DNA of 23,622 nucleotides from a virus (lineage: Duplodnaviria > Heunggongvirae > Uroviricota > Caudoviricetes): the IMG/VR virus record IMGVR_UViG_2537561575_000012; one strand, given 5' to 3'. Positions 4,178 through 23,361 of this stretch are shown here, in pieces. The position numbers and the translations under genes were made by a program. The first letter of the stretch is position 1, and every line of letters starts with the position of its first letter. The notes under the pieces are model-generated. The model worked only from the letters and a program-made list of their open reading frames with translations, made no database searches and was not told the origin of the DNA.

Positions 4178-6549
4178 TGAACTACAGCTATTCCTGGAAT
4201 GCTGAGAAAAAAGCAATCAATCCTTACGTAGAGACGGAAGAGCAATCTTCAGTTTCTGCGCTTTCAACCCTGATCGCTCTGTACGCTGCCGATAACGAGC
4301 AGGAACAGCTGCGCCGCGAGGCACTGAGTGATCAGGTCTGGGAGCGTTATTTCTTTAATGAATCCCGTGATCCTGTCCAGCGCGAAATGGAGCAGGATAA
4401 GCTCATTAGTCGGGCAAAGCTGGCGCATGAGCAGCAGCGTTTTAATCCAGATATGGTCATTCTGGCGGACGTTAATGCCCAGCCTTCCCATATCAGCAAG
4501 CCACTGATGCAACGTATTGAATACTTCAGCAGCCTGGGCAGGCCAAAGGCTTATTCCCGCTATTTGCGTGAGACGATTAAGCCATGTCTGGAACGGCTGG
4601 AGCATGTACGCGACTGTCAGCTATCCACTTCTTTTCGCTTTATGGCAAGCCATGAAGGGCTGGACGGCCTGCTGATCCTGCCTGAAATGAGTCAGGATCA
4701 GGTGAAACGCCTGTCCACCCTGGTAGCTGCGCATATGAGCATGTGCCTTGATGCAGCTTGTGGCGATTTGTATGTCACCGATGACGTTAAGCCAGAAGAA
4801 ATCCGCAAGACATGGGAAAAGGTGGCAGCGGAAACCCTGCGTCTGGATGTCATCCCGCCTGCGTTTGAGCAACTCCGCCGGAAAAGAAACCGCCGTAAAC
4901 CCGTGCCCTATGAACTCATTCCGGGTTCGCTGGCGCGTATGTTGTGCGCTGACTGGTGGTACCGGAAATTATGGAAGATGCGTTGCGAATGGCGGGAAGA
5001 GCAGTTGCGTGCTGTCTGCCTGGTCAGCAAAAAAGCATCTCCCTATGTCAGCTATGAAGCCGTGATGCATAAACGTGAGCAGCGCCGTAAGTCGCTGGAG
5101 TTTTTTCGTTCTCATGAACTGGTGAACGAAGACGGCGACACGCTGGACATGGAGGATGTGGTAAACGCCAGCAGCAGCAACCCTGCGCATCGCCGCAATG
5201 AGATGATGGCCTGTGTTAAAGGCCTGGAGCTTATCGCGGAAATGCGCGGTGACTGCGCCGTTTTCTACACCATCACCTGTCCGTCACGTTTCCATTCCAC
5301 GCTAAATAATGGCAGGCCCAACCCAACTTGGACAAATGCGACGGTAAGACAAAGCAGTGATTATCTGGTCGGCATGTTTGCTGCATTTCGTAAGGCGATG
5401 CACAAAGCCGGATTGCGGTGGTATGGCGTGCGGGTGGCTGAGCCGCATCATGACGGTACAGTTCACTGGCACCTGTTGTGTTTTATGCGCAAAAAAGACC
5501 GCCGCGCCATCACTGCATTACTGCGTAAGTTTGCCATCCGTGAAGACCGCGAGGAACTGGGCAATAACACTGGGCCGCGCTTTAAGTCTGAGTTGATTAA
5601 CCCGCGCAAAGGTACGCCAACAAGCTACATCGCGAAATACATCAGTAAGAACATTGACGGGCGTGGTCTGGCTGGCGAGATCAGCAAGGAAACGGGGAAA
5701 TCCCTGCGTGATAATGCTGAATACGTTAATGCCTGGGCGTCTCTGCATCGTGTTCAGCAATTCCGCTTCTTTGGCATTCCGGGGCGTCAGGCTTACCGTG
5801 AACTGCGATTGCTGGCTGGTCAGGCGGCAAGGCAACAGGGGGACAAAAAAGCAGGTGCGCCGGTACTGGATAACCCGCGCCTTGATGCCATCCTGGCTGC
5901 TGCTGATGCTGGTTGTTTTGCCACCTACATCATGAAGCAGGGCGGCGTACTGGTTCCCCGCAAATATCACCTCATCAGAACCGCTTATGAAATCAACGAA
6001 GAGCCGACCGCCTATGGCGATCACGGCATTCGTATTTATGGCATCTGGTCACCTATTGCAGAGGGCAAGATCTGCACTCATGCCGTGAAGTGGAAAATGG
6101 TTCGTAAGGCCGTTGATGTTCAGGAGGCGGCAGCCGACCAGGGCGCTTGCGCCCCTTGGACTCGTGGCAATAACTGTCCCCTTGCTGAAAATTTGAACCA
6201 ACAGGAGAAAGATAAATCAGCTGATGGGGACCCCAGAACGGACATTACCAGCATGGATGACAAGGAGTTGCACGAATACCTGCACAGTATGAGCAAAAAA
6301 GAGCGCCGGGAACTGGCAGCAAGGTTACGCCTGGTGAAACCGAAACGGCGTAAAGACTACAAACAGCGAATTACAGACCATCAGCGACTGCAGCTCGTGT
6401 ATGAGCTGAAGTCCAGAGGATTTGATGGCAGCGAGAAAGAGGTCGATTTACTCCTTCGCGGAGGCAGTATTCCGTCAGGAGCAGGCCTGCGTATCTTCTA
6501 TCGGAACCAGCGTTTGCAGGAAGATGATCAGTGGCGGAACCTGTATTAA
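4177..6549 (+). CDS. Rolling-circle replication initiation protein (P2 gpA-like, HUH endonuclease)
   Basis: ORF 4126..6549 with start at ATG 4177; motifs [14 protein letters not shown] (TVHWHLLCF) and double-tyrosine YIAKYISKN typical of phiX174/P2 gpA-type initiators. Confidence 0.8.
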
Positions 6550-7510: not shown

Positions 7511-8425
7511 ATGCCATACCAATTGGTAGAGCTTAGCCCCGTAGCTAACGATCTTGAACAGTTAGGAACCAAAGAGAAGTTTTGGTTCTATTTCTCCGAT
7601 GACACTGTAAATTTGCAGTTGTTTAAGTACTCTAGGCCAGGTACTGGCGAGCATTGGTCTGAAAAGTGTGCTGCTGAGTTATGTCATTTGCTTAACATTC
7701 CACATGCTAGCTATGATTTGGCGCGATACAATGGTCGATTCGGTGTGGTGACTCAGAATATCATTCCATCTGGTTTCCGGATGGTAATGGGAAATGAAGT
7801 GCTTCACAGTTCGACATTCGATTATCCTGGGCCTTTACAAGCCGGGGAAAAGCCGGTAAGGGTCAGAGAACACACTGTCACAAGGGTCTTGGGTTGTTTA
7901 GATAGGGAATCTATCAAGCCTCCTCCGAGTGTATATGATCTAACCGGGCTAAATGCAGCAGATGTATTTTGTGGATATTTGATGCTCGATGCACTTGTGA
8001 GTAATCAAGATCGCCACCATGAAAATTGGGCAATCATGCTTAACAATGAAACTGGTGAGCAGTTTTTGTGTCCAACATACGATCATGCCGCTAGTTTAGG
8101 AAGGGAGATGTTAGATGATGAGCGTAACGAACGGCTTAATACTAAAGATAAAAATCGACAAATCCCATGTTTTGTAAGAAAAGCTCGCTCTGAGCTATTC
8201 AAAGCAAAAACTGATAAAAAGCCCTTGCTGACTGTTGAAGCATTTCAACATGCAGTTGAAGGGAGAGTTGCCGCTCGCGACCATTGGTTAGGTAAGTTGA
8301 GCGTTTTAACAGAAGATTCCATTACAGATGTGTTTAACCAAGTGCCTTCATCGTGTATATCCGACAGTGCACGTAGATTTGCAACGTTAATGGTAATGGA
8401 AAATCGCAGAAGGTTACTAGAATGA
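7511..8425 (+). CDS. HipA-like Ser/Thr kinase, C-terminal catalytic domain only (HipT-like)
   Basis: 304 aa; G-x-x-E-K loop LGTKEKF (aa 18-24), catalytic-loop-like SNQDRHHENWA (aa 164-174) and YDHAAS (aa 190-195) parallel HipA motifs; no HipA N-terminal domain; AGGGA before the ATG; stop overlaps the next start (ATGA at 8422-8425). Confidence 0.7.
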   Translation: MPYQLVELSPVANDLEQLGTKEKFWFYFSDDTVNLQLFKYSRPGTGEHWSEKCAAELCHLLNIPHASYDLARYNGRFGVVTQNIIPSGFRMVMGNEVLHSSTFDYPGPLQAGEKPVRVREHTVTRVLGCLDRESIKPPPSVYDLTGLNAADVFCGYLMLDALVSNQDRHHENWAIMLNNETGEQFLCPTYDHAASLGREMLDDERNERLNTKDKNRQIPCFVRKARSELFKAKTDKKPLLTVEAFQHAVEGRVAARDHWLGKLSVLTEDSITDVFNQVPSSCISDSARRFATLMVMENRRRLLE

Positions 8426-9162
8426 CTAATACAAACTCCGTTTACGTCGCATGGCAGGCACCAGATACCAGAGACTGGCATGTTGTTGGTAACTTGCAAG
8501 AGCGCAAATCGGGGTATGTTTTCAGGTATACCAAAGGTGCTCTTAAATCTTCTAAATTTACAAAGTTTAGCGGCATGAGTGATGTTCGTGAAACTTATGT
8601 ATCGGAAGAATTGTTTCCTCTTTTTAAAAATCGCCTTTTATCACCGAGACGTCCAGAGTATCCGAGTTTCATTAAATGGCTTGGATTTGAAGAAGATAAG
8701 GTAAATCCTATCGATATTCTTGCTCGCTCGGGAGGCTTACGAAGCACTGATCAGCTGCAGATTTTCAAAAAAATTGATTTTGATTCTGATGGTAACTTTG
8801 AGCATTTTTTCTTCTTACATGGACTTGGTTACTTGAATAGCTTAGCTAATGCTCGTGTATCTGAATTGAAACCGGGGCAAATTTTGCGTCTTTGCTTGGA
8901 TCTTCAAAATGAATACGATGGGGATGCTGTTGTCGTTCGTGCAGATAAACCAGCTGAAATCGTTGGTTACTGCCCTAGGTATTTAAGTAATGACATCAAG
9001 AAGATGTTATTGGATGATCCAAAATCAATCACTTTAACGGTCGAAAAGATTAGCGATGATGCTCCTCATAACTATCGGTTATTATGTAAATTATCAGGGG
9101 TACTAAGCCAAGCCTGTCAATCGACGCTGATTCCTCAAGATGAGTTTGAACCTATTGAGTAA
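8422..9162 (+). CDS. HipS/HipA-N-like domain fused to a C-terminal HIRAN domain
   Basis: 246 aa. N-terminal ~120 aa (VVGNL...YVFRY...LFPLFKNRLLSP...NPIDILARSGGL) resemble the HipA N-subdomain and HipS (LFPFFDGLIPEG...). C-terminal aa ~125-215 (ILRLCLDLQNEYDGDAVVVRADKPAEIVGYCPRYLSNDIKKMLLD) fit the HIRAN pattern. Confidence 0.6.
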   Translation: MTNTNSVYVAWQAPDTRDWHVVGNLQERKSGYVFRYTKGALKSSKFTKFSGMSDVRETYVSEELFPLFKNRLLSPRRPEYPSFIKWLGFEEDKVNPIDILARSGGLRSTDQLQIFKKIDFDSDGNFEHFFFLHGLGYLNSLANARVSELKPGQILRLCLDLQNEYDGDAVVVRADKPAEIVGYCPRYLSNDIKKMLLDDPKSITLTVEKISDDAPHNYRLLCKLSGVLSQACQSTLIPQDEFEPIE

Positions 9163-18597: not shown

Positions 18598-18953
18598 CGC
18601 TTTATAGCGGGATGAACAATACCAGCGGCAAAGTCATTACTGATATTGATCATCTGCGCCAGTCGGTGCGGGACATTCTGCTGACACCGCAGGGTAGCCG
18701 TATTGCCCGCCGGGAATATGGTTCCCTGCTGTCGGCACTGATAGATCAGCCACAAAATCCGGCATTACGCCTGCAGGTCATGTCGGCAGTGTATGTGGCG
18801 CTGAGTCGCTGGGAGCCACGGTTGACGCTGGATTCCATCACCATCAACAGCAATTTTGACGGTTCAATGGTGGTGGAGCTGACCGGGCGGCGGAATAACG
18901 GTGTGCCTGTGTCCCTTTCCGTATCAACAGGAGCAGAGAATGGCAGTGATTGA
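18594..18953 (+). CDS. Baseplate protein W (gp25-like)
   Basis: 119 aa; overlaps the V stop and precedes J; size and position as P2 W. Confidence 0.75.
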   Translation: MTLYSGMNNTSGKVITDIDHLRQSVRDILLTPQGSRIARREYGSLLSALIDQPQNPALRLQVMSAVYVALSRWEPRLTLDSITINSNFDGSMVVELTGRRNNGVPVSLSVSTGAENGSD

Positions 18954-19847
18954 CCTTTCGCAGTTGCCTGCACCGCAGATTGTGGATGTGCCGGACTTTG
19001 AGACGCTGCTTGCCGAACGCAAGGCAGAATTTGTGGCGCTTCATCCGAAAGAGGAGCAGGAAGAGGTCACCCGCGCGCGGAAACTGAAATCTAACCCGCC
19101 ACTAAATTGTTGCAGGAGAATGCTTACCGTGAGTTGCTTCTGCGCCAGCGCATTAACGAAGCCGCGCAGGCGGTGATGGTGGCTTACGCGATGGGCGGCG
19201 ATCTTGACCAGCTCGCTGCCAACTACAACGTGACACGCCTGACGGTGACGCCTGCTGATAATGATGCTGTGCCGCCCGTTGCAGCTGTGATGGAAAGCGA
19301 TGAAGCGTTACGCCTGCGTGTGCCTGCAGCCTTTGAAGGGCTTTCTGTTGCGGGGCCAACTGCAGCTTATGAATTTCATGCCCGAAGCGCCGACGGTCGG
19401 GTGGCGGATGCCAGTGCAACCAGCCCGGCACCTGCAGAGGTGGTGCTGACTGTCCTTAGCCGCGAAGGCGATGGAACTGCAGAAAAAGACCTGCTGGACG
19501 TGGTGGAAAAAGCTCTGAACAGTGAGAACGTCCGCCCGGTGGCTGACCGTCTTACGGTTCGCAGCGCAGAAATCATCCCGTATCGCGTGGAAGCCACCAT
19601 TTTTCTCTATCCTGGACCGGAAGCAGAGCCGGTAATGGCAGCGGCAAAAGCCAGCCTGCAGAAGTACATCGCCAGTCAGACGCGTCTTGGTCGGGATATT
19701 CGCCGTAGCGCCATCTTTGCCGCCCTGCATGTTGAGGGGGTGCAGCGTGTGGAGCTGGCTTCTCCTCTGGCGGATGTGGTCCTGAACAAAACACAGGCGG
19801 CATCATGTACGCAGTGGAGCGTAACCAACGGAGGAACGGATGAATAG
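18940..19847 (+). pseudogene. Baseplate assembly protein J (P2 gpJ-like) interrupted by a frameshift near 19099-19107
   Basis: N-terminal part (ATG 18940, MAVIDLSQLPAPQIV...) runs in one frame to a stop at 19174-19176; the remainder (LLQENAYRELLLRQRINEAA...) is in another frame from about 19104 to 19847. The span is 908 nt, which is 3n+2. Junction lies in ccgccactaaattgttg. Confidence 0.55.
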
Positions 19848-20445
19848 TCTGCTGCCACCGGGTTCAACACCACTGGAGCGCCGACTGGCGCAAACCTGCA
19901 GCGGGATTTCTGATCTGCAGGTGCCGCTTCGTGACTTGTGGAATCCGGCAACCTGTCCGGTCAGTTTCCTGCCTTATCTCGCCTGGGCGTTCTCTGTGGA
20001 TCGCTGGGACGAGGGCTGGACAGAAAGCGTCAAGCGCCAGGTGGTGAAGGATGCTTTTTATATTCATCAGCATAAAGGGACCACCAGTGCCGTGCGGCGG
20101 GTGGTGGAGCCGTTCGGATTCCTGATCCGCATTATTGAGTGGTGGCAGACCGGAGAAACACCGGGCACGTTTCGCCTGGATATCGGCGTGCAGGACCAGG
20201 GCATCACTGAAGATACCTATCTGGAACTTGAGCGACTGATAAGCGATGCCAAACCATGTAGCCGCCACATGATCGGCATGTCCATCAATCTGCAGACCAG
20301 CGGCCCGCATTGGGTGGGAGCCGCCAGCTATCTTGGCGAAGAAATCACGATCTATCCGTATATCAACGAAACGATTATTTCCGGTGGCACCGCGCATGAA
20401 GGCGGGGCGGTCCATGTTATTGATACAATGAGAGTGAATCCATGA
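19840..20445 (+). CDS. Baseplate/tail protein I (P2 gpI-like)
   Basis: 201 aa; overlaps the J stop and the H start (ATGA at 20442-20445). Confidence 0.7.
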   Translation: MNSLLPPGSTPLERRLAQTCSGISDLQVPLRDLWNPATCPVSFLPYLAWAFSVDRWDEGWTESVKRQVVKDAFYIHQHKGTTSAVRRVVEPFGFLIRIIEWWQTGETPGTFRLDIGVQDQGITEDTYLELERLISDAKPCSRHMIGMSINLQTSGPHWVGAASYLGEEITIYPYINETIISGGTAHEGGAVHVIDTMRVNP

Positions 20446-21677
20446 GCACAAAATTTTATACCCTGCTGACGGATATTGGCGCGGCGAAACTTGCCAGCGC
20501 CGCCGCGCTCGGTGTGCCGCTAAAAATTACCCATATGGCGGTGGGCGATGGCGGTGGAGTATTGCCAACGCCGGACGCAAAGCAGACGGCACTGGTAAAT
20601 GAGAAACGCCGGGCTGCGCTGAATATGCTTTATATCGACCCGCAGAACAGCAGCCAGATTATTGCCGAACAGGTGATCCCTGAAAACGAGGGCGGTTGGT
20701 GGATACGTGAAGTGGGCTTGTTTGATGAGTCCGGGGCATTGATTGCCGTGGGCAACTGCCCGGAAAGCTATAAGCCGCAACTGGCTGAAGGTAGCGGGCG
20801 CACTCAGACCGTGCGCATGGTGCTGATTACCAGCAGCACGGACAATATCACCCTGAAAATCGACCCTGCTGTAGTGCTGGCAACCCGCAAGTATGTGGAT
20901 GACAAGGCACTGGAGCTGAAGGTGTACGCGGATGATCAGATGGCAAAACATCTTGCCGCACCGGACCCGCATTCACAGTACGCGCCAAAAGCCAGCCCGA
21001 CATTTACCGGAACCCCCAAAGCGCCAACGCCAGCGGCGGGGAATAATACCACGCAGGTTGCGACCACTGCGTTTGTACAGGCGGCACTGACGGCCCTTAT
21101 TAATGGTGCGCCAGCCACGCTGGACACGCTGAAAGAAATAGCCGCAGCCATTAACAATGATCCGAATTTCAGTACCACCATTAACAATGCGCTGGCACTA
21201 AAAGCACCGTTGTCGAGTCCGGCACTCACCGGAACGCCAACAGCCCCCACGGCGGCGCAGTCGGTCAACAATACACAGATTGCCACTACGGCTTTTGTGA
21301 AATCGGCGATTGCAGGAATGGTGGGTTCTGCACCTGCTGCACTGGATACACTGAACGAACTGGCGGCGGCACTGGGGAATGATCCGAACTTTGCCACGAC
21401 AATGCTTAATGCGCTGGCAGGTAAACAACCGCTGGACAATACGCTTACCAATTTGAGTGGAAAGGATGTAGCTGGTCTTCTCACATACCTTGGTTTGGGA
21501 GAAGGCTCTGCATTACCTGTTGGTGTCCCTGTTCCGTGGCCTTCAGCCACTCCGCCGACAGGCTGGCTGAAATGCAACGGTGCGGCTTTTTCTGCCGAAG
21601 AATACCCGGAACTGGCAAAGGCTTACCCGACAAATAAATTACCTGATTTACGCGGTGAGTTTATTCGTCACCTGTAA
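20442..21677 (+). CDS. Tail fibre protein H, constant region plus shared segment, in its current orientation
   Basis: 411 aa; conserved N-terminus MSTKFYTLLTDIGAAKLA; two internal fibre repeats; the last 57 aa before ...GEFIR are encoded by the left inverted repeat; the ORF stops 2 codons after the repeat (HL-stop). Confidence 0.75.
   Translation: MSTKFYTLLTDIGAAKLASAAALGVPLKITHMAVGDGGGVLPTPDAKQTALVNEKRRAALNMLYIDPQNSSQIIAEQVIPENEGGWWIREVGLFDESGALIAVGNCPESYKPQLAEGSGRTQTVRMVLITSSTDNITLKIDPAVVLATRKYVDDKALELKVYADDQMAKHLAAPDPHSQYAPKASPTFTGTPKAPTPAAGNNTTQVATTAFVQAALTALINGAPATLDTLKEIAAAINNDPNFSTTINNALALKAPLSSPALTGTPTAPTAAQSVNNTQIATTAFVKSAIAGMVGSAPAALDTLNELAAALGNDPNFATTMLNALAGKQPLDNTLTNLSGKDVAGLLTYLGLGEGSALPVGVPVPWPSATPPTGWLKCNGAAFSAEEYPELAKAYPTNKLPDLRGEFIRHL
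20991..21434 (+). repeat. Two tandem ~74-aa tail-fibre repeat units within H
   Basis: aa 184-257 and 258-331 share P.FTGTP.APT.....N.TQ.ATTAFV..A......AP..LDTL.E.AAA..NDPNF.TT..NALA.K.PL, a phage tail-fibre repeat pattern. Confidence 0.5.
21478..21503. other. Candidate recombinase crossover site (hix/gix/pix-like), left
   Basis: TTCTCACATACC-TT-GGTTTGGGAGAA: two 12-bp half-sites in imperfect dyad (10/12) around a 2-bp core, similar to hixL as I recall it (TTCTTGAAAACC AA GGTTTTTGATAA); at the outer end of the left inverted repeat. Confidence 0.45.
21490..21668. repeat. Left arm of a ~179-bp inverted repeat
   Basis: Reverse complement of 23183-23361; I saw three synonymous mismatches in spot checks; both arms encode the same 57 aa (GEGSALPVGVPVPWPSATPPTGWLKCNGAAFSAEEYPELAKAYPTNKLPDLRGEFIR). 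Confidence 0.75.
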
Positions 21678-22868: not shown

Positions 22869-23361
22869 TATGCAGCCCTCACAATATAGTTAAAAGCGAC
22901 ATTTCGTGGGCGTGTTTCATTCGCACCTGCATGTTTAGTCGTTGCCGCAACAACACCACCCTCTGTAATAGCCGGGTTGGGAATTGGGTAATTATCGAAG
23001 TCAATGGCCGGAGACAGGGGCGTGATTTGTTTTAAAATCGTGGTGCCTGTAAAACTTTCCAGAGTCTGGTCGTTAGTTCGTGAAGTCCAGATTCCCCAAT
23101 AGTGGTTATGACTGACAATCGCACCGTCCTGAAGCGTTAATAATCCCCTTCCGTTATCCCCTCCACGTCCGTCATCCCAGCCACGAATAAACTCACCGCG
23201 TAAATCAGGCAATTTATTTGTCGGGTAAGCCTTTGCCAGTTCCGGGTATTCTTCAGCAGAAAAAGCCGCACCGTTGCATTTCAGCCAGCCTGTCGGCGGG
23301 GTGGCTGAAGGCCACGGAACAGGGACACCAACAGGTAATGCAGAGCCTTCTCCCAAACCAA
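22868..23361 (-). CDS. Alternative tail-fibre C-terminal segment (Hv'), fused to H only after inversion
   Basis: Minus-strand ORF 22868..23356; begins inside the right inverted repeat with the same 57 aa as the end of H, continues ~104 aa further (GWDDGRGG...NVAFNYIVRAA), then stop; no credible independent start. Confidence 0.65.
23183..23361. repeat. Right arm of the ~179-bp inverted repeat
   Basis: Reverse complement of 21490-21668 with a few synonymous differences. Confidence 0.75.

Follow-up and report, generated by a model that had tools for sequence, protein, structure and literature searches.

The results of this work suggest that the broken reading frame of the baseplate gene J in the stretch of DNA analysed here (23,622 nucleotides in its whole length, hereafter the window) is very probably an artefact of the consensus or assembly of one draft genome. 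This reading comes from the comparison of assemblies, and under it the true prophage sequence would encode a normal J of 302 residues, as it does in sibling colonies of the same clone and in an independent assembly. The window is part of contig APZH01000079.1 (57,838 bp) of the assembly GCA_000357825.2, from Escherichia coli P0302308.5; it ends where the contig ends, and contig coordinates are obtained by adding 34,216 to those of the window. It holds a P2-like (Peduoviridae) E. coli prophage, with late genes in the order portal, terminase, scaffold, capsid, lysis, R, S, V, W, J, I and H.

As read from the deposited sequence, the 5′ frame of J starts at the ATG at 18940 and runs for 78 amino acids to a TGA at 19174-19176, and the remainder of the gpJ homolog lies in a second, −1 frame that stays open from 19095 through 19847 and overlaps the first one by 79 nt (19095-19173). 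The whole span of 18940-19847 measures 908 nt (i.e., 3n+2), against the 909 nt, or 302 codons, of intact J in annotated relatives; a single continuous frame of about 302 codons is absent from the window contig and present in all the relatives and clonal copies examined. GenBank calls the 3′ part of the gene from a GTG start, at 19176-19847, as a product of 223 amino acids (END24027.1). In the product of the 5′ frame, residues 1-37 are those of intact J, residues 38-51 are changed by a cluster of substitutions described below, and residues 52-78 are out-of-frame read-through to the TGA; a Pfam search with this 78-residue fragment alone gives no hit. The first-pass annotation had reported two J-like frames, a stop at 19174, a span of 3n+2 and the lack of a slippery heptamer, and all of these hold in the deposited sequence, where no heptamer of the form X_XXY_YYZ is found in the zero frame across 18940-19176. 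Homopolymers of at least four bases were likewise looked for within 19040-19180 and not found.

That the gene is J was correctly recognized at first pass, since it is of the P2 gpJ type by its Pfam family, by its alignment to the pyocin protein PA0618 and by gene order. The Baseplate_J family (PF04865) is hit by the 223-residue fragment with E = 1.1e-24 and by the intact clonal copy with E = 3.2e-24 (cutoff 21.1 bits), and residues 3-302 of the clonal J align with residues 2-295 of PA0618/Tri1a, from the baseplate of an R-type pyocin (PDB 6u5b), with E = 3.4e-105. In gene calls and annotations of both the window and its relatives, J sits at its canonical place in the order V-W-J-I-H. The intact J is therefore, by family, colinearity with PA0618 and gene order, an ordinary member of the Baseplate_J family with nothing novel to it, and a counterpart of the wedge protein of the P2 gpJ type; only in the window contig does it depart from that protein, being split into two ORFs (of 78 and 223 residues) with residues 38-51 altered.

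Coordinates of the features discussed (window numbering)
Feature	Position	Strand	Remarks
5′ gpJ fragment	18940..19176	+	78-codon ORF, GenBank END24006.1
Corrupted patch of 40 nt	19053..19092	+	nine substitutions; ends at the missing G
Missing single G	19092..19093	+	intact TCT G AAC; cause of the frame change
3′ gpJ part, −1 frame	19095..19847	+	otherwise the same as the clone's intact J
H anomaly	21505..21669	+	164 nt of Collar-type variable part; private to the contig

The lesion is larger than a single-base frameshift. Alignment with intact J genes of relatives, starting with E. coli 13E0767, phage 500465-1 and phage Cartapus, located the indel and, with it, a patch of nine substitutions that had been overlooked earlier. 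At the site of the missing base the intact relatives read TCTGAACCC and the window reads TCT-AACCC, and the loss of the G creates a TAA at 19092-19094 in the downstream J frame. A switch of frame had been placed near 19099-19107: the shift is real in the deposited sequence, and its position has to be moved 7-15 nt upstream, to 19092/19093. The proposal that a slip in the short A/T run ‘ctaaattg’ was responsible was tried and rejected, as this run is unchanged in the intact copies of 13E0767 and 500465-1 and the base that was lost is a G, 10 nt upstream of it.

The nine substitutions, given from the intact to the window state, are T>G at 19053, C>A at 19064, A>G at 19065, G>C at 19068, T>C at 19070, A>G at 19075, T>G at 19079, G>A at 19081 and G>A at 19087. 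Seven of the eight codons that they alter change the amino acid, one change being silent; through the patch the conserved DEQEAVIRTLELES becomes EEQEEVTRARKLKS, and the motif R-T-L-x-L-E-S-E-P is broken, the residues of which (R, T, L, L, E, S, E and P) are constant in every intact J aligned, including those of P2 and of Salmonella phage SEN5. The flanks of the patch are nearly identical to the relatives, and ten of the eleven differences private to the window in the 3.5 kb that it has in common with five relatives fall inside the patch. Among 83 relatives (94.6-99.3% identity) the G is present in all and the nine patch bases in none; seven of the nine show no variation within this set, and only one other private site occurs in 1,852 nt. 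When the set was enlarged to about 110 relatives, the G was still a constant feature of them and the nine bases were still private to the window. The patch also creates a perfect palindrome of 10 nt, CCGCGCGCGG, at 19071-19080, where the intact sequence is CCGCACGCTGG. Quasi-palindrome correction was considered as the origin of the patch and dropped, because the palindrome covers at most two of the ten changes.

Further evidence on the nature of the lesion comes from the clone itself. The P0302308.x isolates are several colonies of a single Bangladeshi patient who had ETEC diarrhoea resembling cholera in 2011 (PMC4309559), and colonies were clonal in 10 of the 12 patients of the study (PMC4462620). 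They were sequenced on a HiSeq 2000 with paired ends, 300-bp inserts and more than 200x coverage (PMC4462620), from 100-bp reads (PMC5469772), and assembled with Celera Assembler (PMC5469772, PMC4462620). Exact protein matches to lysozyme K, the portal protein and the tail-fibre assembly protein of the window served as handles for the recovery of siblings (gpV, the HIRAN-domain cargo protein and H were discarded as handles, being too common or unique to the window contig), and brought up five more assemblies: APZB01000013.1, APZD01000025.1, APZF01000081.1, APZA01000022.1 and DADDZQ010000032.1, the last from outside the APZ batch. APZH is colony.5 and APZE is colony.2 (reads SRR446987); from the order of accessions and from sequence identity we infer that APZA, APZB, APZD and APZF also come from this patient. 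J is intact, with 302 amino acids, in all four of the assemblies that cover it (APZB, APZD, APZF and DADDZQ).

Over 20.2 kb, the ten changes of the patch and only 10-14 other positions separate APZB, APZD and DADDZQ from the window, and the substitutions outside the patch are all A<>C or G<>T. The T at 20424, a rare allele found in 2 of 107 relatives, is common to the window and APZB, and by sequence the window and its sibling contigs belong to the same prophage lineage. DADDZQ010000032.1 has a private insertion of 6 bp, GACTCG, after window position 6164 in gene A (replication endonuclease), giving a product of 792 rather than 790 amino acids; the insertion is absent from the window and from APZB and APZD, the clonal copies that cover the site, and may come from a difference in a short in-frame repeat or from assembly. 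With the patch confined to one draft assembly and J intact in the clone's other colonies, a sequencing or assembly error is almost certain. The kind of cause that had been offered at first pass as one of two options, an error of assembly or sequencing, is strongly supported by a lesion private to one assembly, by the intact siblings and by the signature of miscalls described next, even if the A/T run is not where it arose.

In seven of the nine substitutions of the patch the new base is the one that follows in the intact sequence, and in none is it the preceding one (P ~0.008), the exceptions to the pattern being those at 19068 and 19075. Taken position by position, 24 of the 40 nucleotides of the patch match the intact sequence in the correct register only, seven in the +1 register only, seven in both and two in neither, and at its end the patch has made a true advance of +1, which is what is seen as the ‘deleted G’. 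The patch thus looks, on its letters, as if two registers of the same sequence had been blended. The default minimum overlap of Celera Assembler is 40 nt, the same as the length of the patch, which may be taken as a lead only. The next-base signature is, however, not exclusive to sequencing artefacts, because dislocation (misalignment) mutagenesis by error-prone polymerases yields next-template-base substitutions together with −1 frameshifts.

A different trace of error runs through the whole assembly batch. Comparison of the six assemblies gives 27 singleton positions, at which one assembly alone differs; T>G, or A>C on the complement, accounts for 21, of which 17 come immediately after GG, and not one of the 27 is a transition; natural variation in the same genes, as seen in the portal region, is transition-rich. 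The miscalling of T as G after GG (GGT>GGG) is a known sequence-specific error of HiSeq instruments. The window has eight singletons, the most of any assembly (2324, 4268, 12177, 12255, 12988, 15826, 21683 and 23160), six of them T>G (or A>C) directly after GG. By their spectrum these calls show systematic Illumina miscalls in the consensus of the window contig, and to judge from sequence no between-colony singleton difference in the region looks natural. All five IGS Celera assemblies of the clone that were examined carry private single-base calls, at about 1-4 per 10 kb here. The drafts are thus demonstrably imperfect at the level of the consensus. Among 15 billion proteins, the scaffold protein of the window and that of APZB are each found on a single contig, their own, and END23997.1 and ENH25036.1 are such singleton database variants of the scaffold protein arising from private calls. 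The likeness to known Illumina miscalls and phasing errors is twofold: singletons of T>G after GG on one side, and next-base substitutions with an end one base ahead on the other. The substitutions of the patch have a mixed spectrum, unlike that of the GGT>GGG singletons, and the two kinds of error therefore need different technical causes.

The contig has a further anomaly, in the tail-fibre gene H, 2.6 kb from the patch. H ends in an invertible cassette in which two C-terminal parts alternate, and which also holds two tail-fibre assembly genes and a serine invertase; the crossover site, a short inverted repeat, has the sequence GGTTGGTTTGGGAGAAG and its last base at 21504. Downstream of it the window has 164 nt of the Collar-type variable part; at 21668/21669 this is joined, with no homology at the junction, to the terminal 204 nt of the Gp53-like part in the wrong frame, so that the H of the window is truncated to 411 amino acids with the ending HL*. 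The H of APZB passes in frame through the crossover into the Gp53-like C-terminal part (469 aa), and in APZF the cassette is flipped, H having 513 amino acids and the Collar-type end. The window has in addition an inverted repeat of 179 nt (21490-21668 and 23183-23361), absent from APZB, which looks artificial. From its sequence the H of the window looks like a chimera of the two orientations of the cassette; it is found in the window contig only, and it shows this contig to be unreliable in the neighbourhood of J. The cassette is otherwise like those of Gin, Cin and Pin (of Mu, P1 and e14) in its variable H ends, assembly genes, serine invertase and crossover sites, and differs from them in being assembled as a chimera; it is separate from the finding on J.

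The invertase start at the contig end (23362-23622) matches the cassette of APZB, after which come genes for a 184-aa resolvase, a GIY-YIG protein and an AraC-type regulator. To the 188-aa invertase of the prophage itself, which in APZF and APZA precedes the sheath and tube genes, its identity is no more than 84%. There seem, by sequence, to be two near-identical invertible tail-fibre cassettes in the genome, and the window contig may cross from one cassette element into another. The same 139-aa tail-fibre assembly protein also adjoins Mu-like baseplate genes, at two other loci.

The patch was searched for well beyond the clone. The 47-mer used for it has no match in 5,426 complete E. coli genomes, and a 27-mer spanning six of the substitutions has none in GTDB representative genomes, IMG/VR or the JGI metagenomes. 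Among about 15 billion proteins, in a collection to which Logan assemblies of public reads contribute, the exact 78-residue product occurs on one contig only, its source being NCBI alone and not Logan, a set that may lack the reads of P0302308.5. The 223-residue fragment is called on 17 contigs, the source contig included; in nine other places among the matches listed, it is owed to an N-run in a scaffold, a contig end or a deletion, and the patch is in none of them. Three unrelated scaffolds (two from ENA metagenomes and one NCBI assembly contig) have their N-run gaps within J nucleotides ~117-198, and another ENA metagenome scaffold loses its alignment in the same stretch, which corresponds to window 19056-19137, about 80 nt that overlap the patch. 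Positions 19065, 19099, 19103 and 19110 are variable among relatives, and the gaps may mark a local polymorphism hotspot or sequence that assembles poorly; the scaffolds are a biased sample, because they were chosen by way of the 223-residue product.

Taken together, these observations would be accounted for if the consensus over 40 nt of J had been built from poor or mis-registered read sequence. The wrong bases would then mostly be the next true base, and the stretch would finish one base ahead, leaving an apparent ‘deleted G’. The technical cause could be pre-phased, low-quality read tails, or read sets overlapped one base out of register, and the error would probably sit where coverage was locally thin or interrupted, or where overlap failed. 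What speaks against an artefact is that a consensus at more than 200x should not normally follow bad read tails, and a run of errors over 40 nt in such a consensus is unusual.

A much less probable alternative is that the changes are real and arose in a single colony, where error-prone synthesis with template dislocation would have produced nine substitutions and a −1 frameshift in one shower of mutations and inactivated J. The patch is, after all, present in the deposited sequence, dislocation would also give next-base changes and −1 frameshifts, and the host can do without the tail genes of a prophage. Even so, we regard such an event as unlikely: it would be private to one assembly where the clone's others are intact, and a density of 25% changes over 40 nt is orders of magnitude beyond known polymerase error rates. 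The same contig has eight miscalls of Illumina type and a chimeric H, and the 78-residue product has turned up in no other assembly (with NCBI as sole source, and Logan possibly without the P0302308.5 reads). The reading of the prophage as defective in tail assembly, raised at first pass, is likewise unsupported, because it requires ten clustered changes, unique among the sequences searched, in one colony. Less probable again is that the patch is a short tract of gene conversion or recombination from a divergent J, with the frameshift at the edge of the tract. P2-like prophages are mosaic, J is polymorphic here among relatives, and four or five of the nine variant bases match the state of one or another divergent lineage; yet none of the lineages sampled (Wadgaonvirus and Elveevirus relatives, Klebsiella and Yersinia phages, P2 and SEN5) supplies the patch, and four of the changes are at positions invariant in all of them. 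Alignment to six divergent J genes, including those of P2 and SEN5, gave no lineage that matches, and a k-mer search of both strands of the window gave no donor either, the longest shared k-mer being 11 nt; both the 27-mer and the 47-mer are absent from the collections searched. Seven nonsynonymous codons out of the eight altered are, moreover, unlike what tracts from functional homologs leave. Templated hypermutation in the manner of diversity-generating elements (DGR-like) finds no support, as there is no template in the window or in the collections searched, and the changes hit T, C, A and G and are therefore not adenine-specific.

It could also be asked whether J is functional in two frames, being made either as two polypeptides or by programmed −1 ribosomal frameshifting. 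In favour are the 79-nt overlap of the frames, the −1 direction of the shift that would be needed, and the use by P2-like phages of a programmed −1 frameshift in their tail chaperone genes E/E′. The zero frame has, however, no slippery heptamer, J is in one frame in more than 100 relatives and in all clonal copies, and the patch destroys conserved residues and leaves a 78-residue fragment without a domain hit, so that this reading has the lowest probability of all and a programmed frameshift is effectively excluded.

The lesion resembles the frameshifted pseudogenes of cryptic prophages in that a single-base frameshift falls in an essential tail gene. Real lesions of decay, by comparison, are inherited by clonal relatives and have a transition-rich spectrum, whereas that of the window is private to one assembly, has nine unnatural substitutions clustered beside it, and lies in a prophage that is intact elsewhere. 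An example of genuine decay, contrasting with the window, is the heavily deleted relative on Logan contig ERR8651352_156, where the scaffold protein is down to 62 amino acids, LysA to 41, W to 50 and I to 38, and J is without its first ~186 nt.

The biological weight of the split J is most likely nil, because the J of the clone is intact. END24006.1 and END24027.1 are, together with the unique variant of the scaffold protein and the truncated H, most likely database noise; bogus products of this sort enter protein databases as singleton “variants”, and would lead prophage-completeness tools to label the element defective. Consensus miscalls of the GGT>GGG kind in this ETEC draft batch of about 200 genomes, of which five assemblies were examined, can inflate counts of SNPs within a patient. 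Were the changes real instead, this would be a rare natural case of clustered, next-base-templated mutation in bacteria, in which the J of an otherwise intact clonal prophage was lost during, or shortly before, human infection.

Apart from the tail genes, the prophage carries cargo between its DinI-like and portal genes (7511-9162), consisting of a 304-aa protein without a domain hit and a 246-aa protein with a HIRAN domain. The same slot is occupied in one relative by DarT, a macro-domain protein and AIPR, and in another by a TIR-domain protein, and some relatives have a second slot, between S and V, with TIR, DUF2971 or AIPR genes. Both slots look like the anti-phage defence hotspots of P2-type phages.
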